This document shows, piece by piece, positions 3,287-53,780 of a DNA stretch of 64,000 nucleotides (its first letter is position 1; the number at the start of each line of letters is the position of its first letter). Origin of the DNA: Planctomycetota bacterium (GTDB lineage: Bacteria > Planctomycetota > UBA1135); contig JASFYO010000019.1 of the NCBI GenBank assembly GCA_045047305.1, positions 5,405 through 69,404 on the forward strand, in the 5' to 3' direction. A program made the position numbers and the translations under genes. The notes beneath the pieces were generated by a model. The model was not told the DNA's origin. It ran no database searches and saw only the letters and a program-made list of their open reading frames with translations.

Positions 3287-5200
3287 TTATTCCTTGAGCT
3301 TGCTTTCGAGCAAACGGGCGGCGATTCCCATGAGGATGTCTTCCGTGACCATGCCAACCAAGCGGTTGTTGGTGTCCACCACGGGCAGACAGGATATCTT
3401 CTCGCGGCGCATCAATGCGATAGCGCTGAGCGTACGAGTGTCCGGAGTGACCCGGATTGGCTCTTTATCCATAACATCGGCCACGGGAACCTGAGTATCC
3501 ATTTCACTGCGGCTGAAGGCGAAGCGCATGAGCACCCGGTGAGTCAACAAGCCTATAAGATTGTGGTCGTCGTCCTCCACCGGGATGTGGCGCAGATGCC
3601 ACCAATCCATCATGTTCGCAGCAAGGTCCACTAACTCTGTTTCACGCACAGTAAAAAGATCTGTGCTCATCAGCGAAGAGATTCGCTCGTATTGGTCACG
3701 CCACGAAACGGAGGTCTCGCACACCTCGGCAAGCGGCCATTCATGCAGTGGCAATCCAGTCTCTTGGTTTTTGATAGTCGAGTTCACCAAGGCGGTTAGG
3801 GTTTCCTTAACGGTTGCGGTTTTGCGCATTTTAGATGCCGACATCAGCTGCCAGCGCGCACCCGTCCGCTCTGCCACCACCCGTTCGCGCACCACGTTGA
3901 TGTAACGATCGATGTCTTCGTTATCTAAGTTCACGCTTTCTAGGCCGCGCCGTGCGATTGGGATGAGGATTGCGAGAATCAAATCATGGGTAGGGTAGGT
4001 GCGACCGTCGATCCAAGTGAGCTGCGCATCCAATCCCAAGCGCGCGGCGGCAAGGAGATTATTTTTGCAATCGTCAAAGTCCATCAATTCGCGTGGATCA
4101 CCGATTTCATTGGCAACTCCCTTCATCAGGCCGAGCCAGAAAGCGGAATTTGCGATTTCGTCGAGCACGGATGGACCGGCCGGAAGTAACCGGTTTTCAA
4201 TGCGCAGGTGAGGCTTGCCATCGGAGATTCCATAACACGCACGGTTCCACCGATAAACGGTGCCGGTGTGCATGCGCAGGGCATCGAGTTTCGGCGCACG
4301 ACCCGCAGCAAGGGCCTCGAATGGATCCTCGTATTCTTCGGCTCCAATTAAAGTGCGGAAGCGGGCGATGTCCTCCCGGTAAAGTTCAATCACCGATTCC
4401 TTAACCCATGAAGCTCCAAAACTGACTCGGGGTTGCATATCGCGGTGCGCAACCTCAGTGCGCCGAGTGTCGACCGATTGCTGGAATAGAGCCAATCGGG
4501 TTTCACGCCATAAACGCTTACTAAAAAGTAAGGGTGAGTTCACTGCGCAAGACATCACTGGTGCGGCGACGAGCTGTGCAATGTTGTAGTGCATCGGAAA
4601 CTCGTCGGCAGGGATTTGCAAATGCACTTGATAGGAAGTGTTGCAAGCTTCCAACATGATGGTGTCGTGCGTGAGTCGCAGATCATCAATGCCTTTAATC
4701 CGCAGGCGAAAGGGTCCACCGCGCAATTTTGCCAATGCATCGTTGAGCGCAAAGTAACGCGGATTGGCAGTCATGTTATCGAGGGTCATGTCCTCGATTT
4801 CAAGCGTCGGCAAAATACCGGTTAGTACGATGTCTCCTCCAGCGGCGCGCGCAGCTTCTCGCGCTTTCTGCACTAACTCATTGTTCTGCTTTTCTAGTCG
4901 ACGCAAGCAGTCGCCTTGAAAATCTAATGGATCAAGATTGCACTCAAGATTGAACTGCGCAAGCTCCGGCGTGAAGTGAGGGTCGTCGAGGGCTTCCAAT
5001 AAGCGTGCGCCTAGGTTTGCAGGGCGCATGCCTCGGTCGACCAAAAACATTTCTTGTTCGGCGCCAATGCGTTGACGGTCGGTCTCTAGGACTCCGTCCT
5101 TTACCATTTGTTCCAAAGCCTGAAGATCGCGCAACAGGGCTTTGGTGAAGTGGCGCAACTGGTTTTCGTCGCGGTAAGAAGTGACGTTGAATTCACCCAT
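3287..5200 (-). CDS. Glutamate-cysteine ligase family (GCS2) protein with C-terminal tandem CBS domains
   Basis: IGAEQEMFLVD, ELAQFNLE, QVHLQ, HTGTVYRWNR and LRIENR motifs. The C-terminus has CBS repeats (MSTDLFTV...HIPVED; ISCLPVVD...LVGMVT). Confidence 0.88.
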   Translation of the reverse strand: MGEFNVTSYRDENQLRHFTKALLRDLQALEQMVKDGVLETDRQRIGAEQEMFLVDRGMRPANLGARLLEALDDPHFTPELAQFNLECNLDPLDFQGDCLRRLEKQNNELVQKAREAARAAGGDIVLTGILPTLEIEDMTLDNMTANPRYFALNDALAKLRGGPFRLRIKGIDDLRLTHDTIMLEACNTSYQVHLQIPADEFPMHYNIAQLVAAPVMSCAVNSPLLFSKRLWRETRLALFQQSVDTRRTEVAHRDMQPRVSFGASWVKESVIELYREDIARFRTLIGAEEYEDPFEALAAGRAPKLDALRMHTGTVYRWNRACYGISDGKPHLRIENRLLPAGPSVLDEIANSAFWLGLMKGVANEIGDPRELMDFDDCKNNLLAAARLGLDAQLTWIDGRTYPTHDLILAILIPIARRGLESVNLDNEDIDRYINVVRERVVAERTGARWQLMSASKMRKTATVKETLTALVNSTIKNQETGLPLHEWPLAEVCETSVSWRDQYERISSLMSTDLFTVRETELVDLAANMMDWWHLRHIPVEDDDHNLIGLLTHRVLMRFAFSRSEMDTQVPVADVMDKEPIRVTPDTRTLSAIALMRREKISCLPVVDTNNRLVGMVTEDILMGIAARLLESKLKE

Positions 5201-9991: not shown

Positions 9992-11011
9992 ATGGATCCG
10001 AAAATTGTGGTTCCACAGGGGGACCTCGGGGGCATTGCTCCCGAGGTCCTTCTTAATTCATTGGCCAGCGAAAAGCTGCGCTCCTCCTGCCACCCGGTAA
10101 TCCTCGGGCACATTGGTGCTTTACGTACGATTGCGAAGAATCTTGGCATCGACATCGCGCTTGAGCCCGTCGCCACCGCCAAGGAGGGATTTGCTGTTTC
10201 GACAAGTGACGCGGTTCCGGTTCTGGAGCTGGAGAATGCTGTACCGAACGATCCTCCCGGTCGCCCTGCTGCAAGTTTTGGCATGGCCAGCGTGGAGGCA
10301 GTCTTGCGAGCGGCAAGCTTATGCCTCGAAGGTTCCGCCGACGCCATGGTGACTCCGCCAATCCATAAGGAGAGCGTGCACCTCGCAGGCTTCCCCTTTG
10401 AAGGTCAAACGCAAATGATTGGAGAGGCGTGTCGTTCTCGGCGCTATGGCATGCTTGCTTGCGCAGGCAACCTACAGGTGTTGGTCGCCACTAGGCACAT
10501 GTCCTTGCGTGACGCCCTTGAGCGCCTTGATCCACAGTTCGTTGCGAAGCAAATTCGTATCGCACATGAAGCGGCTAGAGAAACGCTCGGTATTGCATCT
10601 CCTAGGGTTGTTCTTGCTGGCTTGAATCCTCACGCAAGTGAAGGCGGGGCCTTTGGCGATGAAGAGAGTAAAATTTTAGAACCTGCAATTGCGATGGCGC
10701 GACAAGAGTGGGGGTTTGAGACCGCCGGTCCGGCAGTCCCCGATGTCGTTTTTGCAGAAGGCGTACGCGGCGATTGGGATGTTGTGGTCGCGCTTTATCA
10801 CGATCAGGCATTTTTGCCGCTCAAAATGCTACCTAGAGAGTCTTCCTATACGGTTTTTGTTGGGGGCCCGGTTCTGCGCACTAGCCCTATGCATGGCGCG
10901 GCTTATGACATCGCCCGCTCGGGAACGGCCGATTTCCGACCTTTCTCCTTTGCGCTGGAGCAGGCAATTGTGCTTGCAGGGCGTCGAATTGCAGCAGCTC
11001 CTGTAGTTTAG
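9992..11011 (+). CDS. pdxA: 4-hydroxythreonine-4-phosphate dehydrogenase
   Basis: GDLGGIAPE, TPPIHKE, GLNPHASE, LYHDQ and RTSPMHG motifs. Confidence 0.9.
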   Translation: MDPKIVVPQGDLGGIAPEVLLNSLASEKLRSSCHPVILGHIGALRTIAKNLGIDIALEPVATAKEGFAVSTSDAVPVLELENAVPNDPPGRPAASFGMASVEAVLRAASLCLEGSADAMVTPPIHKESVHLAGFPFEGQTQMIGEACRSRRYGMLACAGNLQVLVATRHMSLRDALERLDPQFVAKQIRIAHEAARETLGIASPRVVLAGLNPHASEGGAFGDEESKILEPAIAMARQEWGFETAGPAVPDVVFAEGVRGDWDVVVALYHDQAFLPLKMLPRESSYTVFVGGPVLRTSPMHGAAYDIARSGTADFRPFSFALEQAIVLAGRRIAAAPVV

Positions 11012-22766: not shown

Positions 22767-24568
22767 GTTCGGTCAGGGAGTTGGTAAACACGAACCCAAC
22801 TTCCGTCGGTGAGCGCTAGACGTTTGCCATCGGGAGAGAGCGCTGTTGCAGTGGAGTTGGGGAGGCCCAAGGGTGCGCCGATAGGTTCGAGTGTTGCCGC
22901 ATCGAGAAGTTGAAAAGATGACTTGCTCCAGGAATGCGCGAGGAGAGTGGATTCGTCTAGGTGTCGGATAAAGGAGTAGTCACCTTCCCATCGGCAAACT
23001 TCTTTTCCAGTGGAGAGGTCTACCGCATGGATGGATGCAGGCTCTTCATCAAAATAACTACCACTGGTCTGGCAATAGACCAAGCGACTTCCCGAGGGGT
23101 TGATGCTTAAAGTGCGGATAGGGTCTCGAAGCTTGGGCACGAAAGATCGAACACTAGAACCCCCGTTAGGTGAGAACATATTTAGGGCCCCGCTTCCTCC
23201 GTGCTGGCCAAAGATGCTTGCCATGGCCAAGCTTTGGCTATCAGCGGTCCAGGCGAAATCCATCGCACGCCCTAAGAGGGGGATCTGATGAGAGGATCCG
23301 TCGGAAAGGTTTACTAGGCTTAGGCCTTGCGACCAATCATCACCCCCAATCGCCAAGTACTGTTGGTTTGGGGAAAGCGAAATCTCGGGATTGCTGGATA
23401 TGTCGTCCACCTTGAATGGAATGGTTCGCAGTGCTTCGCCGCTGACGCCATCGCGAAAAACAACCGCGCCTTTCTCTAAGCAAACGATCTCTCTGCCCTT
23501 GGCGCCACTAGTGCAGGAGCGAAAACCCTGCAAGGTTGTTCCCTTCAGGGTGTTTAAATCAAAAAATAAACTGTCCTTGCCTGAAGCAAGCAGGCTGTTC
23601 CCATCGGCACTAAACGCAAGATGCTTGGGCTCCGAAGGATGCAAGGAGAGCTCTCGGATTTTCTTATCGCCCTTCCACAATTGAATGTGGCCGGAAGAAG
23701 CTCCCACCGCAAGAAGGTCTGTATCGGTGGCAAAAGAAATCGATGGAGCCGAGGATCCGGTGTTGAGAGTTTGTAATAAAGTTCCCTCAAAGTTGTAGAA
23801 GTAGACTTCGTGGAATCCACCACTGATGGCAAAGCCGGTGCCATCGGGCATGAGCTCACAGGCATAGACCGATTTATGAGTGGGGAATGATTTCTCACCA
23901 ACTTGCACGAGCCCTGTGCCTTGAATGCTGAAAATGTTTCCATTGACTTCGCCCACACGGTAAACGGATTTCACCCCAGGCAAAGTATTGGGGTGCTTAT
24001 ATTGCAGGTCCAACTCCCCCGTATCTAGGCTGAATTGGCTCACGCCACTGGCATTGTCACCAACGATAAGCTTCTTCCTGTCGGTCGAAAAGCAAACGCT
24101 CTTTGCGGGATAGGGTACTGGCGGAAACGTTTGTACTTCGGTCCAGCTCCGCGTTTCTACTACGCGCATGACCTTATTCGCATACTGATAAGCGAATAAG
24201 GTACCAGCGTTATTCCAGGCAGCGCACGACCGAAAAGAAGCTAGCGTAGAAAAAACTAAATTTCCTTGGAGGTCATAAATGACAAGATTTTCTCCGACGG
24301 TGACTACTTGAGTACCATCCGGCGAAAAACGGGTAGCTCCAAGCCAATAATCATCGACTTGGCGCGTCCAAAGAATCTGATCATTTGCTAAATCATAAAG
24401 AATGAGGTCCCCCTCATTGCCAGTGGAGGCCAGCAAGGTTCCAGCGCCATTGAGGGCCAGAGATTGGCCGGAACCGCCACCGACCTGGAACTCAGCGATT
24501 AATTCCGGTGACTCTTGTTGGCCGGAAATGAGTTGGGTAGAAAAAAGAATGGCAGCGCATACCAGCAT
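22754..24568 (-). CDS. Exported WD40/beta-propeller repeat protein
   Basis: Repeated FSPDG/FSADG/LSPDG blade motifs and a short signal-like N-terminus. Confidence 0.85.
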   Translation of the reverse strand: MLVCAAILFSTQLISGQQESPELIAEFQVGGGSGQSLALNGAGTLLASTGNEGDLILYDLANDQILWTRQVDDYWLGATRFSPDGTQVVTVGENLVIYDLQGNLVFSTLASFRSCAAWNNAGTLFAYQYANKVMRVVETRSWTEVQTFPPVPYPAKSVCFSTDRKKLIVGDNASGVSQFSLDTGELDLQYKHPNTLPGVKSVYRVGEVNGNIFSIQGTGLVQVGEKSFPTHKSVYACELMPDGTGFAISGGFHEVYFYNFEGTLLQTLNTGSSAPSISFATDTDLLAVGASSGHIQLWKGDKKIRELSLHPSEPKHLAFSADGNSLLASGKDSLFFDLNTLKGTTLQGFRSCTSGAKGREIVCLEKGAVVFRDGVSGEALRTIPFKVDDISSNPEISLSPNQQYLAIGGDDWSQGLSLVNLSDGSSHQIPLLGRAMDFAWTADSQSLAMASIFGQHGGSGALNMFSPNGGSSVRSFVPKLRDPIRTLSINPSGSRLVYCQTSGSYFDEEPASIHAVDLSTGKEVCRWEGDYSFIRHLDESTLLAHSWSKSSFQLLDAATLEPIGAPLGLPNSTATALSPDGKRLALTDGSWVRVYQLPDRTQSR

Positions 24569-24642: not shown

Positions 24643-27201
24643 TCACTGAGTGGAGCTGTGTACCTCAGCGCCGACAGTCGTCGACTCCAAAGTGAGCTTT
24701 CCATCAGAGACTCCCACACGCAACCCATGGCATTCTTCGAGCTCACCCCTTAAGAGTTTTTCTGAAAGCGGATTCAGAATTTTCTTTTGGATAAGCCTAC
24801 GCAGCGGACGTGCGCCAAAGTCAGGGTCATACCCGCGCTCGGCAAGCCAAGTCCGCGCATCTTCACTAACCACTAGCTCCATTTGAGTGTTTTGCATCAA
24901 ACGTGCTGCAAGTTCCGTTACTTGTAAATCAACAATCTTGGCTAGCGCTTCTTTGGACAAGCTGTCAAAGACCAACACTTCATCAATGCGGTTTACAAAC
25001 TCCGGGCGGAAGTGAGCTCTCAAATCTTGCATGTTGCGCAAGTTTGAAGTCATTACGAGCAAGGTGTTGCGGAAATCCACGGTGCGCCCTTTGCTGTCGG
25101 TGAGACGACCATCGTCAAGCACCTGGAGCAAAGTGTTGAACACATCGGGGTGCGCCTTCTCCACCTCGTCCAGCAGCACTACGGCATAAGGATGACGCCT
25201 TACTAACTCGGTTAGTTGACCGCCTTCATCATGGCCGATGTATCCCGGAGGTGCACCAATCAAACGTGCGACGGTGTGCTTCTCCTGATACTCGGACATG
25301 TCCAAGCGAACCATTGCTTGTGCATCGCCGAACAACTCCGTTGCAATCGCTTTGCACAATTCCGTTTTGCCGACACCAGTTGGTCCAAGGAAAATGAAAC
25401 TGCCCAAAGGACGACTTTCATCCTGCAGTCCAGCACGAGCGCGCCGCACCGTTTCCGCAACTGCAGTGACAGCCTGATCCTGTCCAATGACGTGCTCTTG
25501 CAGCAAGGACTCAAGCTTTAACAAGCGTTGCCTTTCCGTTTCAATCATGCGGTCGACCGGAATTCCAGTCCAAGCTGCCACAACTTCTGCGACTTCACTT
25601 GGGCCGACCTCTTCGCGCAAAATCGGTTGATCACCCTGCAGTTCGCGTAACTTCACGGCGGCCTTGTCAGCAGCGGCTTCCAGGTCAGGGATTTCGCCAA
25701 ACTGAATGCGTCCGACTTGCTCTAAGTTGCCTTCGCGTTCTAACTGTTCTGCACGAATGCGCAGCTCTTCGATTTCGGCCATGGCATCTTTCATCAAGTC
25801 CACTTGTTGCTTCTCGTTTTGCCAACGAGCCCGCAATGCTTGTGCACTCTCTTCCACCTCAGCCTTGTCTTCCTCCAAGACCTTGATCTTTATTTTTGCA
25901 TCGGCGCCTCCTTCAGCCTCAAGTCCCGCTTGTTCAATCTGAATCCTGCGTAGACGGCGTTCTAAAACATCCAATTCTGCCGGCATGGAATCCAGTTCTA
26001 AACGCAAACGACTCATGGCTTCATCCATCGCATCAATTGCTTTATCGGGTAACTGACGATCTGCGATATAGCGATACGAAAGGTTCGCTGCGGCTACCAA
26101 GGCAGCATCGGTAATTTTTACGCCGTGGTGCACTTCATAGCGTTCTTGCAAGCCACGCAAAATCGCAATGGTGTCGGCGACATCAGGCTCTTTCACCTTT
26201 ACCGGCTGAAAGCGGCGTTCTAGTGCAGCATCCTTTTCAATGTGTTTGCGGTATTCCTCGTAAGTCGTGGCGCCAATACACCTCAATTCTCCGCGGGCCA
26301 GCGCCGGCTTCAACAAGTTAGCAGCATCAACTGCGCCTTCCGCAGCGCCGGCACCAACCATGGTGTGTAGCTCATCGATGAACAAGATGATTCCGCCGTC
26401 GGCATCCTGCACTTCTTTTAGTACGGCCTTCAACCGCTCTTCAAACTCACCGCGATACTTGGCGCCGGCTAATAAGGAACCCAAATCGAGTGACATTAAG
26501 CGCTTGTTTTCGAGCCCAGTAGGCACATCGCCAGAAATAATACGTTGTGCTAATCCTTCCACTACGGCAGTTTTGCCCACACCGGGTTCACCCACGAGAA
26601 CCGGGTTGTTTTTCGTTCGGCGAGAGAGAATCTGCATCACTCGACGCACCTCTTCATCTCGCCCAATGACTGGATCGAGCTTGCCATCTCGTGCTAGTTG
26701 GGTGAGATCCTGCGCATACTTGCCAAGCGCATCGTCGGAAGCCTCCGGGTGGTCATCGGTGACTTTGCGATCGCCACGAATGCCTTCAAGGGCTGAACGT
26801 ATTGCAGCTGGATTGGCTCCACAATCTTGCAGTTCCTTTGCGAGAGGGGAGTCGGCGGAGACTAAAGCAAGCAGCAGGTGTTCGGTGGATAAGAAATCGT
26901 CGCCCTGGGCTTGGCGGCATGCGTCCGCGGCCTGGAGCAAAAAGCCAAACTCCTTGGAGGCCATAAGCTCTCCAGGTTGGACCTTGGGCAGCTTTGCCAG
27001 CGCTTGGTTGGCTAAGGCTTCAGCTAAAAGTGGGCTTAGCTCCGTCTTGGACAATAGGGCAGGAACAAGCCCTTTCTCTTGTTTAAGCAGGGCCAGCAAG
27101 AGGTGGGCCGGCATCATCTCTCGGTGGGAGAGATCACGGGTGAAGCGCTCTGCAGCCTGCAGGGCTTCCTGAGTTTTTTGGGTGAGTGCTTGTGGATTCA
27201 T
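24643..27201 (-). CDS. clpB: ATP-dependent disaggregase ClpB
   Basis: Two AAA+ modules ([16 protein letters not shown]), coiled-coil middle domain and FGARPLRR. Confidence 0.96.
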
Positions 27202-27243
27202 GTCATTTTGGCTGGGAGGGCTACTCCGCAACGTCCGATAACG

Positions 27244-27259
27244 TGCAACGTCCGTGCCA
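27244..27259 (-). promoter_or_regulatory. Sigma54 -24/-12 promoter of clpB
   Basis: Minus strand TGGCACGGACGTTGCA is an exact TGGCAC-N5-TTGCA match, 42 nt before the ATG. Confidence 0.85.
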
Positions 27260-27305
27260 CGGCAAAACCGCCAATATGGCAGTCCCGGTTGCGTAAACTT
27301 CTCTG

Positions 27306-27830
27306 ATGCCCGAAATCAGCCTCCTCCTCCTTGGATTTCTCAGCTTTATTGTCGCTGGGGCGGGCCTCCTGCTGATTCCATTCAGCCTTCCAGGTAACTG
27401 GATCATTGCCTGCGCTGGGCTCTTCGGCCCCACGCTTGGTTTGGGCTGGACTCCCCTGTGGATTCTCCTTGCCGCTGCGGGAGTTGCGGAGCTTTTGGAG
27501 CTGCTCCTCGCCACCAAGACCGCAAAGAAAGCCGGTGCCGGCAAATCTGGTCAATGGGGGGCTTTCTTTGGGGGCATCACGGGGGCTATCTTTGCCACTC
27601 CCTTCATCCCCATTCCGATTTTGGGCACCTTAATCGGCGCAGCGGCAGGGGCATTTCTTGGCGCCATTCTGTTTGAGATCATGTTTGCCAACCGAGAAAG
27701 CCAAGAGCTTATGAGCATTGGCTTTGGGGCGTTTTTGGGAGTCCTTTTAGGGAAAGGGGCCAAAATGGCCTTAGGAGCTTTTCAAATGGGCTATTGGGGC
27801 TTTGCCGTTTATCAAGGAATTTGGGCATAG
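27306..27830 (+). CDS. DUF456 family membrane protein
   Basis: Gly-rich TM helices, [18 protein letters not shown] and [13 protein letters not shown]. Confidence 0.8.
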
Positions 27831-47002: not shown

Positions 47003-47974
47003 CTAATGCTTTACACGTAATCGTGTGAGCAGAGGCAAGTGATCGGAGCCGATTCCAGATTGCGGCTTGCAAAAAACGATGCCGACTTCTTGCGTAACCA
47101 AAACATGGTCAATAGGGACTCCCAATGGTGGGAAGAAGGTTGGCCAAGTTGGTTTCCATCCGTGCAGCGCGGATCGTAGCGATGCCGTTTTACAAGTTTG
47201 CTTGAAGATATGCGACCAGGGTGTCGTGTTAAGGTCGCCGAGCAAAACAGCAGGGCCGGTCTTCGCTGTGAGATAATCTGCAATCGCATGGAGTTGGGCA
47301 TCTCGTTTGGCGACAAAATGTTTGCGCATCGGGGGCATCGGATGGGTCGCGATTAGGAGTAACGGCTTCTCCGTTCTCGTGGTAGCCAAAATTGAAGGGT
47401 GACCGGTCTCGGCAAAATCGCGCTCCTCAAAATCCATAGGGACCCGACTCCAAATCAGGATGCCAAAATATCCCTGATCCGCGAAGGTCATTTGATAGGG
47501 GTACTCCGCCTTGAGGTGGCTCAACGCTTGGACCCATTTTGCATTGATCTCGATGAGTGAGAATACATCGGGCTTTTGCTCTTCAATCATCGCAACCAGG
47601 CTTTCCATATCTTGGTTGGTGAGATGGACGTTCGCGCTGAGAATCGTGAGATCACATTCTTCAGGGGCTACCGTTAAAGTGTCTGCAAAGAGGAAGCTCA
47701 GGCTGAGAGCTTGGGCGGTGACGGTAGATGCGAGTGCAATTGCAAGCACGCGCTCTCGTTGCCACAGGAGAAGCAGTACTCCGGCGAGGCTAACAATAAA
47801 TATCTGCGGTCGGAAGTGAGTCGTAAGCTCTAACCACCAAGGCAACCCTGGGAAAAAGGTGAGACTCGAAAGTGCAATCAGTGCAACTGCTGAGACTCGT
47901 TTGAGCCGCCGACGGTTTAGAAGAGATTGTTTGATGCCAAAGAATAGCTTAAGCCAAGGCGTCGTCCGCAACAT
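47003..47974 (-). CDS. Membrane-anchored endonuclease/exonuclease/phosphatase (EEP) family protein
   Basis: N-terminal TMs, [17 protein letters not shown] and GSDH. Start uncertain. Confidence 0.85.
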
Positions 47975-50964: not shown

Positions 50965-52617
50965 CTAGAAGCCGCCCATGCCACCCATTCCGCCCATACC
51001 ACCCATTGGGTCGCCGCCACCGGCAGGCATAGCAGGAGCAGCTTCTTTCACTTCGGAGACGATGGCCTCGGTGGTGAGTAGCAAGGTGCTGACGGAAGAA
51101 GCATTCTGCAAAGTAGTGCGCACGACCTTCGTTGGGTCAATGATGCCCATCTTGATCATGTCGACGTACTCGCCAGTCGCTGCGTTGTAACCCTGTGCAA
51201 AGCCCTTTGCGTTACGCACTTTGTCGACCACGATGCTGGCATCGACGCCAGCGTTAGAGGCGATTTGGCGAATAGGAGCTTCCAGTGCACGGCTGATGAT
51301 TTCCGCACCAGATTTTTGGTCTCCGGACAAGTCCAGCTTGGCAATGATGGCTTGCGCACGAAGCAGGGAAGTTCCACCGCCTGGCAGCACGCCTTCTTCA
51401 GCGGCTGCGCGGACGGAAGCGAGTGCGTCATCAACGCGGTCCTTCTTCTCCTTCATTTCCGCTTCGGTTGCAGCGCCAACGTTGAGTACAGCAACGCCAC
51501 CGGCCAACTTGGCCAAGCGTTCCATGAGCTTCTCCTTATCGTAATCGCTGGAAGTGCGATCAATTTCTGCACGGATGAAATCCATGCGCTCTTTGATTGC
51601 AGACTTCTTGCCAGCACCTTCGACGATGGTGGTTGCGTCTTTCGTGATGACCACGCGCTTGGCTTGGCCAAGTTGCTCGATGGTTGCGGTGTCCAATTTC
51701 AGACCAAGGTCTTCCATCAGTGCAACGCCGCCAGTCAACACAGCGATGTCTTCCATCATGGCCTTGCGGCGATCGCCGAAGCCAGGTGCTTTTACGGCAG
51801 CACACTTAAAGATGCCACGTAGTTTGTTGACCACCAAAGTTGCGAGCGCTTCGCCCTCGACATCTTCTGCAAGAATCAACAAAGGCTTGCCGGACTTAGC
51901 TACGGCCTCCAGTACAGGAAGCATGTCGCGTACGCTGGAAATCTTCTTCTCGAAGATGAGGATATAAGGGTCCTCCAGCTCGACTTCCATCTTCTCCATG
52001 TTGGTGGAGAAGTGCGGGGACAGGTAGCCCTTATCGAACTGCATGCCTTCAACCCACTCAATCTCGGTTTCGAGTGAGCGACCTTCTTCGACGGTGATGA
52101 CGCCATCTTTGCCAACCTTCTCAAAAGCTTCGGCGAGCTTAGCGCCAATCTCTTTGTCGTTGTTGGAAGCGATGGTCGCAACCTGCATGATTTCCTCAGT
52201 GGTCTTGACCTTGGTTGACTTCTTCTTCAAGAAATCCACGACGGCTTCCACTGCAGCTTCCATGCCGCGCTTTAGCTCAATTGGGTTCGCGCCTGCAGCA
52301 ACGTTGCGTAGGCCTTCTTCGTAGATGGCTTCGGCGAGCACGGTTGCAGAAGTGGTGCCGTCACCAGCGATGTCGCTGGTCTTGGCGGAAACCTGACGCA
52401 CCAGTTGTGCACCAATGTTTTCATATGCGTCTTCGAGTTCAATCTCGCGTGCAACCGTGACACCATCCTTGGTGACAATCGGTGTGCCGAAAGATTTCTC
52501 AATGATCACGTTGCGGCCGCGTGGGCCGAGAGTGACTTTGACTGCTGCAGCGAGCTTCTGCACGCCAGCGCGGATGCCCTCGCGAGCTTCCTGATCGAAT
52601 GCGATTTTCTTAGCCAT
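50965..52617 (-). CDS. groEL: Chaperonin GroEL
   Basis: [27 protein letters not shown] and a GGM tail. Confidence 0.98.
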
Positions 52618-52627
52618 GATTTAAGCC

Positions 52628-52936
52628 CTAACCAATGATGCCGAGGATGTCGTTTTCCGACATGATGAGGTATTCCACACCTTCCCACTCGACTTCGGTG
52701 CCGGCATAGGAGGTGAATAGCACCCGGCTGCCGTTTTTCACGGCAAAGTCGGTGCGGGTGCCGTCGTCCAGCAAGCGACCTTCACCTAAAGCGATGACGG
52801 TGCCTTCAGCTGGCTTCTCCTTTGCGGAGTCAGGTAGCACAATGCCACCGGCGGAGATGTCAGCAGCGGCGAGGCGCTGGACGAGAACTTTGTCGCCCAA
52901 AGGGCGGATTGCGACTTTCTTGGCGGTCTTGGCCAT
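52628..52936 (-). CDS. groES: Co-chaperonin GroES
   Basis: IRPLGDKVLV, AGGIVLPDSAKEKP and YAGTEV. Confidence 0.97.
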   Translation of the reverse strand: MAKTAKKVAIRPLGDKVLVQRLAAADISAGGIVLPDSAKEKPAEGTVIALGEGRLLDDGTRTDFAVKNGSRVLFTSYAGTEVEWEGVEYLIMSENDILGIIG

Positions 52937-52965
52937 GGTTGATTCAGGTTTCTCGTAGCGCCGGA

Positions 52966-53397
52966 TTACCAAGGCTCACCGCTGTTTGGCGGTTGACTCT
53001 CGGGCTCGTCCTGGGCAGGACGGTGATGCACTGGCGACTGGGAAAAGATGCGTTGGACGGTGATGCGCAGCAACTCCGCCGGGATGGGTTTCTTTAGCAT
53101 GGTGATGACGCCCAACTCCATCGCAGCGAGTTCAATCTCACGTGAGGGGTTGCCGGTCATCAAAATGCTGGGAACAAGCTGCCCAGCTTGTCGAACCTGC
53201 CCAATGACCTCCAAGCCGGTGAGGCCTGGCATGTGCATATCGAGCAGGGAGAGGTCATAACGAGTCTTCAGCAGTTGGCGCAGAGCATCTGCACCGGTGG
53301 AAGCCATCTCAATGCGAACGTCCAGGCCCTGCAATAGGGCCACGACAGCGCGAAGCTGGTCGTCTTGGTCGTCGGCTACGAGAATTCTGTAAGTCAT
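52966..53397 (-). CDS. Single-domain response regulator (REC)
   Basis: ILVADD, LLDMHMPG (phospho-acceptor Asp), LMTG and KKP. Confidence 0.9.
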   Translation of the reverse strand: MTYRILVADDQDDQLRAVVALLQGLDVRIEMASTGADALRQLLKTRYDLSLLDMHMPGLTGLEVIGQVRQAGQLVPSILMTGNPSREIELAAMELGVITMLKKPIPAELLRITVQRIFSQSPVHHRPAQDEPESQPPNSGEPW

Positions 53398-53418
53398 GAG
53401 GTTCCCTCGCCTATGAAG

Positions 53419-53434
53419 AGCAATCCTCGTGCCA
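53419..53434 (-). promoter_or_regulatory. Sigma54 -24/-12 promoter of REC-groES-groEL
   Basis: Minus strand TGGCACGAGGATTGCT matches TGGCAC-N5-TTGC, 21 nt before the REC ATG. Confidence 0.85.
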
Positions 53435-53477
53435 TCCGCGGCCTGCCGTATCGGCAGTCCCTCTCGGCCGCCCCGCG

Positions 53478-53780
53478 CTAGCTGCCGGAAATGCCGAGGT
53501 CTTCCTCTTCGTCCTCGCCCTCATCGCCGAAATCCATACCGCCTTCGACCCACTCGTTTTCCTCGAGCCATTCACTTTTGTCGAGCGCTTGAGTACGACC
53601 TTCCTCAAGGATGGCTTCATCCTCCCAGTGGTCGACGGCGTGCTTCAGAACTTCTTGATCGAGATTGCCAGCGCAGAGCAAACATTTGGCTCCACCTTCC
53701 AAGGCCTCAACGGCGTCACTGTAAGTAATGACTTCGTAGGAACAAAGCGGGCAACGGACGACGTTTTTGGCAGTACTCAT
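53478..53780 (-). CDS. Small CxxC...CxxC zinc-binding protein with acidic tail
   Basis: CPLC and CLLC, with C-terminal DEGEDEEED. Confidence 0.65.
   Translation of the reverse strand: MSTAKNVVRCPLCSYEVITYSDAVEALEGGAKCLLCAGNLDQEVLKHAVDHWEDEAILEEGRTQALDKSEWLEENEWVEGGMDFGDEGEDEEEDLGISGS

Follow-up and report, generated by a model that had tools for sequence, protein, structure and literature searches.

Two chaperone promoters that carry the same palindromic element at the same distance from a sigma-54 box raise the question of which protein binds that element and how it could act from a position so close to the promoter. Both lie in the stretch of Planctomycetota DNA analyzed here (the window, 64,000 nucleotides), one before clpB and the other before an operon encoding a lone receiver domain (REC), GroES and GroEL. 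To judge from the available portions of the literature, sigma-54 promoters at chaperone genes are already known as such, having been predicted in Planctomycetota and mapped in Flavobacterium. A matrix-based survey from 2025 found them enriched in Planctomycetia and Bacteroidota at the GroEL, GroES, GrpE, DnaJ, DnaK, small HSP, ClpB and Lon groups, and its accessible text describes activator specificity as unknown for most organisms (PMC12316311). Mapped 5′ ends in Flavobacterium psychrophilum, as given in the accessible part of that report, place sigma-54-type (SM4) promoters at groES-groEL, lon, dnaK, grpE-dnaJ, htpG and clpB (PMC9723704), and heat induces the orthologous gene set of Rhodopirellula baltica, with no regulator named in the excerpts available (PMC2754498).

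The two minus-strand 42-mers described in an earlier note on this DNA are present at 27285..27244 and 53460..53419, align without gaps and each combine a perfect TGGCAC-N5-TTGC with a palindromic upstream element at identical spacing; as that note also held, nothing CIRCE-like is found at the clpB or the REC-groES-groEL promoter. Domain matches bear out the genes named downstream, i.e., clpB at one locus and, at the other, a lone receiver domain with Cpn10 and Cpn60 after it. The sigma-54 promoter of clpB, with -24/-12 boxes of perfect consensus, occupies 27245..27259 on the minus strand, and the palindrome CTGCC-N5-GGCGG, the proposed activator (enhancer) site with its center at about -42, occupies 27268..27282 on the same strand. 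The coding region (24643..27201, minus strand; Clp_N, two AAA modules and ClpB_D2-small) likely starts at the ATG at 27201, the listed reading frame beginning at a TTG at 27231. A divergent DUF456 gene (27306..27830, plus strand) has its start codon 23 nt beyond the palindrome, which leaves no intergenic space for a distal enhancer. A divergent sigma-54 promoter serving DUF456 through the left half-site was considered and discarded, its GG-to-GC spacing being one nucleotide too long. Directly after the clpB -12 box lies a TTATCGGAC box (27228-27240, minus strand), which is identical in 7 of 26 clpB loci of the family, from several genera, and present as variants in 2 more.

The second unit is organized in the same way. 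Upstream of the REC-groES-groEL operon, a perfect palindrome, CTGCC-N5-GGCAG (53443..53457, minus strand), precedes a sigma-54 promoter of perfect consensus (53420..53434, minus strand) with an 8-nt gap that is kept in relatives. The first gene of the operon encodes a stand-alone receiver-domain protein of 143 aa (52966..53397, minus strand), which holds the same place before groES-groEL in relatives; groES (52628..52972) and groEL (50965..52617), both on the minus strand, were identified by their Cpn10 and Cpn60 domain matches. Upstream lies a conserved 100-aa gene with an acidic tail and no Pfam family (53478..53780, minus strand), a homologue of which is found upstream of receiver-groESL in 10 of the 12 such loci fetched. 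Its stop codon falls 20 nt upstream of the palindrome, so that this promoter too is squeezed between genes. The earlier note had placed the upstream element one helical turn from the -24 box, a figure that measurement corrects: palindrome and box are 8 nt apart edge to edge, and the palindrome center, at about -42, is 18 nt from the -24 GG. When the REC-groES-groEL unit is compared with a 93%-similar contig of a related strain (run X2), indels cluster at 53459-53475 on the upstream side and at 53409-53412 on the downstream side; there are none within 53413-53458, a pattern that fits constraint on the internal spacing of the unit.

How unusual these two units are depends on which part of them is counted. 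Chance would give 0.20 matches to TGGCAC-N5-TTGC in the window; three are present, a number that none of 100 shuffles reached, and two of the three occurrences are the clpB and REC-groES-groEL sites. The third (23829-23843, minus strand) lies inside a WD40-repeat reading frame, has no palindrome and is probably due to chance. For the upstream element on its own, GGACTGCC-N5-GGC with at most one mismatch gave four matches in the window against 1.68 expected, and 9 of 100 shuffles reached four; one of these matches (10724-10739, minus strand), antisense within a 339-aa coding region and devoid of a sigma-54 box, was set aside as chance. Taken by itself, the upstream element is nothing rare in this window, and the signal lies in its combination with the sigma-54 box.

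The genome as a whole (2.83 Mb in 91 contigs, 54% G+C, estimated 87.7% complete) contains exactly three copies of the composite CTGYC-N5-GGCRG-N8-TGGCAC-N5-TTGC: the genome scan that the earlier note had proposed adds to the clpB and REC-groES-groEL units a third copy directly before dnaK. When a weight matrix was trained on relatives alone (28 sites, none from this genome), only those three sites scored above 12 bits genome-wide (48.2, 47.5 and 36.0), and the reversed-sequence control gave none. A fourth operon with both elements is groEL-groES-groEL-dnaJ, in which palindrome and sigma-54 box are each perfect and the palindrome lies 39 nt ahead of the box (that is, 8 + 31 nt), and grpE, found at the start of another contig, probably continues this operon across the contig break. 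Perfect matches to TGGCAC-N5-TTGC number 22 in the genome; all four that precede chaperone operons have a palindrome within 160 nt, while among the remaining 18 a single one has a one-mismatch palindrome, at a gap of 139, and 17 have none. The dyad-symmetric site is thus specific to one regulon, accompanying 4/4 chaperone sigma-54 promoters, and the GG and GC doublets lie 10 nt apart within TGGCAC-N5-TTGC at clpB, REC-groES-groEL, dnaK and the second chaperonin operon alike. What this genome does not display is the remote enhancer arrangement, roughly 80-150 nt upstream in two or more copies, as the palindrome is present in a single copy at gaps of 8, 8, 8 and 39 nt. In three of the four operons a neighboring gene starts or ends within about 20 nt of the palindrome, so that a distal enhancer does not fit into the intergenic DNA, and the palindrome centered at about -42 is the sole upstream element common to these three squeezed operons.

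The dnaK leader (L002:905-935, equivalent to contig C21 of this genome, G000, at about 47137-47167 on the minus strand) is predicted to form a 5′ hairpin with a 7-bp stem and -14 kcal/mol, followed by an unpaired A-rich stretch ahead of the ATG. A 5′-proximal hairpin appears in 17 of 17 folded dnaK leaders of relatives despite their differing sequences, and such a structure, if it forms as modeled, could act as a transcript stabilizer or a thermosensor. The single public RNA run (share 0.07) yielded short conserved groEL pieces from other organisms.

A sigma-54 regulon requires the sigma factor and its activators, and the check for both that the earlier note had called for found them: rpoN (Sigma54_DBD match of 198 bits) and six true bEBP genes (Sigma54_activat matches of 195-244 bits). 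The best-scoring of the six is an NtrC-type bEBP whose gene ends 12 nt ahead of the dnaK palindrome. Its domains are Response_reg, Sigma54_activat, AAA_lid_14 and HTH_8, and directly upstream of it lies a histidine kinase consisting of HisKA and HATPase_c only, with no sensor and no membrane segment. Receiver, AAA+ module with a GAFTGA loop, Fis-type helix-turn-helix and adjacent kinase together make up a group I bEBP with its kinase; the loop, GAFTGA in most orthologues, is GSFTGA in this protein. The order kinase-bEBP-dnaK was found in 11 of the 12 loci fetched, those 11 coming from seven genera of the window's family and three other families, the kinase being 240-270 aa long; the exception is one genome of a fourth other family (G039), where dnaK palindromes are present without an adjacent bEBP. 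The segment between ATPase and helix-turn-helix measures 80-161 residues in 11 orthologues of the family versus 72-77 in five distinct orthologues from five other families, and the longer linker is possibly an adaptation to the abutting site, the comparison amounting to one evolutionary contrast only. Used as a query in the genome collection, the bEBP retrieved mostly paralogues from many phyla. Another bEBP gene lies about 2.3 kb from rpoN (contig C14 of G000, rpoN at 701-1174 and bEBP at 3505-4002).

The classical heat-shock regulators were looked for as well. The check for hrcA returned no PF01628 match in this 87.7%-complete genome, and neither groES nor dnaK is preceded by a CIRCE element; a genome-wide scan for CIRCE-like sites found one weak site with four mismatches, elsewhere in the genome. 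For RpoH, the best TIGR02392 match in the same 87.7%-complete assembly (156 bits) falls below the cut-off of 323, and no hsp20 gene was found in it. As the genome is only 87.7% complete, the lack of hrcA, rpoH and hsp20 is not proven.

The earlier note had made its case depend on the motif recurring in orthologous promoters, and it does so before dnaK, REC-groESL and clpB of relatives, the named relatives being metagenome-assembled Planctomycetota genomes. With at most one mismatch, the composite was found in 19 of 24 genomes of the same family; 16 genomes sampled across nine further families of the order had none, nor did the reversed control. Allowing any gap from 4 to 14 nt brought matches in 29 of 48 family genomes and in 1 of 152 others, and the gap was 8 nt without exception in the 42 family matches; the one match outside the family, with a gap of 5, is probably due to chance. 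Among 30 loci fetched, 16 lie before dnaK, 12 before REC-groES(-groEL), one is the clpB unit of this genome and one falls at a contig end, and a bEBP gene is immediately upstream in 14 of the 16 dnaK loci. At clpB, a sigma-54-like box with at least one palindrome is present in all 26 loci examined in the window's family, with gaps of 8-9, 17-19, 30, 38-42, 61, 71-72 or 81-82 nt; the 8-nt gap is found in 6 of the 26, and most others have helically phased longer gaps.

Beyond the family, the exact composite was matched 45 times across 185,579 species genomes. Planctomycetota-type genomes account for 22 matches of the dnaK type and 16 of the receiver-groES type, four in Gemmatimonadota-type genomes precede Clp_N (ClpB-like) genes, and two in Longimicrobiales precede GrpE genes, one of them just under the Pfam cut-off; a match in Ancylobacter precedes an oxidoreductase gene and is probably due to chance. 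The four ClpB-like and two GrpE loci of Gemmatimonadota-type genomes (L165, L194, L199, L203, L171 and L176) have the same 8-nt gap. The motif-bearing Gemmatimonadota genomes contain 7-10 similar NtrC-type genes each, at 40-47% identity, among which none stands out as a clear orthologue of the activator. A wider survey of 80 dnaK loci of mixed phyla, gathered by DnaK search and to be taken as a rough lead only, found a sigma-54-like box with a perfect palindrome at most 170 nt upstream in seven of them, in Isosphaeraceae, Phycisphaerae, Marinisomatota, Latescibacterota and KSB1 genomes, while four control scans gave none.

Enhancers of group I bEBPs depend, at short range, on the face of the helix on which they lie. 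The gaps between palindrome and promoter in the window's family display such a stereospecific relation. Searching all 49 family genomes for TGCC-N5-GGCA, a free gap and GGCAC-N5-TTGC gave 68 short-gap and 37 longer-gap matches, 105 together, against 2 + 2 in the reversed controls. These gaps fall into clusters at 7-9 nt (49 matches), 17-20 (9), 28-31 (9), 38-41 (25), 48-52 (6) and 59-61 (4), with three outliers at 22, 35 and 36 nt that may be due to chance, and the clpB loci extend the series to 61, 71-72 and 81-82 nt. The best-fitting period is 10.45-10.5 nt with a phase of 8.0, which puts the gap centers at 8, 18, 29, 39, 50 and 60 nt. Over all 105 matches R is 0.85, and over 58 genus-by-gap pairs it is 0.78, values that none of 5000 uniform draws attained in either case. 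Relatives share gaps by descent, and the raw periodicity is therefore overstated; the conservative figure, and the one to trust, is the R of 0.60 obtained when each of the 25 distinct gap values is counted once, which 4 of 5000 uniform draws equaled or exceeded. Twenty loci with gaps other than 8 nt were fetched, and behind these gaps lie the groEL2 operon, receiver-groESL, clpB and four HSP20 genes, as well as two Host_attach/baeRF12 genes, one bEBP paralogue and one glycosyltransferase gene. The two genes of Host_attach/baeRF family 12 lie behind a 7-nt gap in one genus of the family (L248:1116-1613 and L249:320-820), where the regulon may include them as additional members.

In sister families the same element does have the features of an enhancer. 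Among ten dnaK loci inspected, which represent nine further families of the order, eight combine a sigma-54-like box with a pair of palindromes; these are separated by 30-44 nt and lie 21-135 nt upstream of the box. The -12 element is often TTTGA in these loci, and a bEBP gene lies upstream in 6 of the 10. The remote, two-copy arrangement is thus found in sister families, unlike in this genome.

The earlier note had proposed a co-regulated sigma-54 chaperone regulon governed by an uncharacterised regulator. The regulon is supported by comparative evidence, namely the four operons, the presence of rpoN and bEBPs, and conservation. As to the regulator, the shared second site stands, and what it recruits is likelier the sigma-54 activator itself, the kinase-linked NtrC-type bEBP by dnaK, than an extra, unrelated factor, since the bEBP-kinase pair lies next to dnaK and sister families have this palindrome twice, at the distances usual for enhancers. 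It is probable, from the comparison of genomes, that the four operons belong to a two-component sigma-54 chaperone regulon of at least that size, in which the enhancer has moved next to the -24 box. Judged by gene neighborhood, the palindrome is most likely the site of the dnaK-linked bEBP, one of six that the genome encodes. It is generally described that bEBP activators bind remotely and reach the promoter by looping, and in the parts of that literature at hand the model conflicts with an activator site centered at about -42 (PMC7057263, PMC5505868).

The most plausible way to accommodate these observations would be that a dimer of the NtrC-type activator (receiver, AAA+ ATPase and Fis-type helix-turn-helix) binds the palindrome, and that its phosphorylation by the kinase leads to ring assembly and to remodeling of the sigma-54 holoenzyme waiting at the promoter. 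The site would be needed on one face of the helix, at gaps of 8 + 10.5n nt, so that the bound activator would contact the promoter complex directly. At a gap of 8 nt the activator would make this contact from its position at about -42, hardly looping the DNA if at all, and the long flexible linker before the DNA-binding domain might assist. Two further steps are speculative: the lone receiver from the groESL operon might drain phosphate from the kinase and so provide negative feedback, and free chaperones might hold the kinase or the activator inactive until titrated off by unfolded proteins. Both the receiver as a phosphate sink and the chaperone titration are speculation by analogy with sigma-32/DnaK, HrcA/GroEL and HspR/DnaK. 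The picture in its entirety, in which an activator on a long tether works without a loop from a site abutting the -24 box, as the output of a sensor-less two-component heat-shock circuit checked by chaperones and damped by a decoy receiver, is put forward tentatively, as a possibility rather than as an expectation.

An element that abuts the -24 box in three of the four operons would equally suit steric interference, and the sigma-54 promoters might be real while a separate repressor or anti-activator uses the palindrome as its operator and blocks the holoenzyme or the activator until released by stress, in the manner of HrcA or HspR. Promoter-proximal NtrC sites at glnAp2 act negatively, limiting transcription. 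Moreover, activators normally bind remotely, according to the available text of two studies (PMC7057263, PMC5505868). We nevertheless consider a repressor unlikely, given that the two palindrome copies of sister families lie 21-135 nt upstream and that gaps reach 82 nt within the family, distances at which a steric block is impossible. In addition, the genes that accompany the regulon are those of the kinase-bEBP pair, and no candidate repressor is among them; no hrcA was found in the 87.7%-complete genome; and the palindrome accompanies chaperone sigma-54 promoters only, apart from the one-mismatch exception at a gap of 139. It could also be imagined that the palindrome is an enhancer for a different bEBP, and that the dnaK-linked pair controls something else or only dnaK. 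The six bEBPs of the genome, the G039 dnaK locus that has palindromes without a neighboring bEBP, and the motif-bearing Gemmatimonadota, which lack a single clear orthologue among their 7-10 similar bEBPs per genome, would be in keeping with this. The kinase-bEBP-dnaK order, with the palindrome in between, is however present in 11 of 12 loci from four families, and a bEBP gene is directly upstream in 14 of 16 dnaK loci, which makes another activator rather improbable.

Two explanations would dispense with a dedicated regulator. Each half-site, read on either strand, ends in TGGCAG, one letter off the -24 consensus, and this resemblance to the -24 box (TGGCA) could mean that the palindrome is a secondary docking site for the sigma-54 holoenzyme. 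At the clpB and groES units, however, neither half-site is followed by a -12 element at the required spacing, which makes holoenzyme docking hard to sustain; a dimeric DNA-binding protein is a better match for the dyad symmetry, the tandem copies about 40 nt apart in sister families and the linked helix-turn-helix activator, and we regard docking as very improbable. Chance resemblance of two promoters might be suspected, as enrichment of the upstream element in the window is not significant when it is counted without the box. It is excluded as an explanation of the shared element, in view of the genome-wide uniqueness of the composite, its conservation before orthologues in dozens of genomes with controls at about zero, and the 10.5-nt phasing.

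An NtrC-type activator acting at the palindrome, the reading we favor, has clear relatives among known systems. The pair resembles NtrB/NtrC at glnAp2 in comprising a kinase and a receiver-AAA+-HTH activator with dyad sites, which are in tandem in the sister families; it differs in that a single site abuts the -24 box here, the kinase is sensor-less and the targets are chaperones rather than nitrogen genes. The targets dnaK, groESL, clpB, grpE and dnaJ are those of the HrcA-CIRCE and sigma-32 systems, but control here would be positive, ATP-dependent and sigma-54-based. In Flavobacterium, whose phylum lacks a classical heat-shock sigma factor, chaperone and protease genes likewise form a regulon with -24/-12 promoters; the phylum is a different one, and the accessible portion of that report leaves the activator among three candidates and describes no upstream palindrome (PMC9723704). 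The 2025 survey covers the same gene set, and its available text contains no mention of a palindrome or of upstream-activating sites, no cognate regulator and no spacing analysis (PMC12316311). Within the literature searched, a scope outside which the study of Pirellula enhancer-binding proteins by Studholme and Dixon (2004) falls, no description was found of the palindrome, the kinase-activator pair or the phasing. Neither the candidate regulator nor an enhancer abutting the promoter nor a spacing series with a 10.5-nt step appeared in any of that literature.

For the biology of sigma-54, the family supplies a natural spacing series that runs from 8 to about 82 nt in helical-turn steps, with one arrangement that is unexpected under the looping model; the series makes the minimal enhancer distance directly testable with existing promoters. 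For the Planctomycetota, the heat-shock switch would take the form of a concrete circuit, made up of a kinase-activator pair, a 15-bp site, four target operons and possibly a feedback receiver. If real, it would constitute a third major system of bacterial heat-shock control beside sigma-32 and HrcA, a status suggested by the presence of the palindrome and sigma-54 module before chaperone genes in other classes of Planctomycetota, in Gemmatimonadota and in several related candidate phyla.
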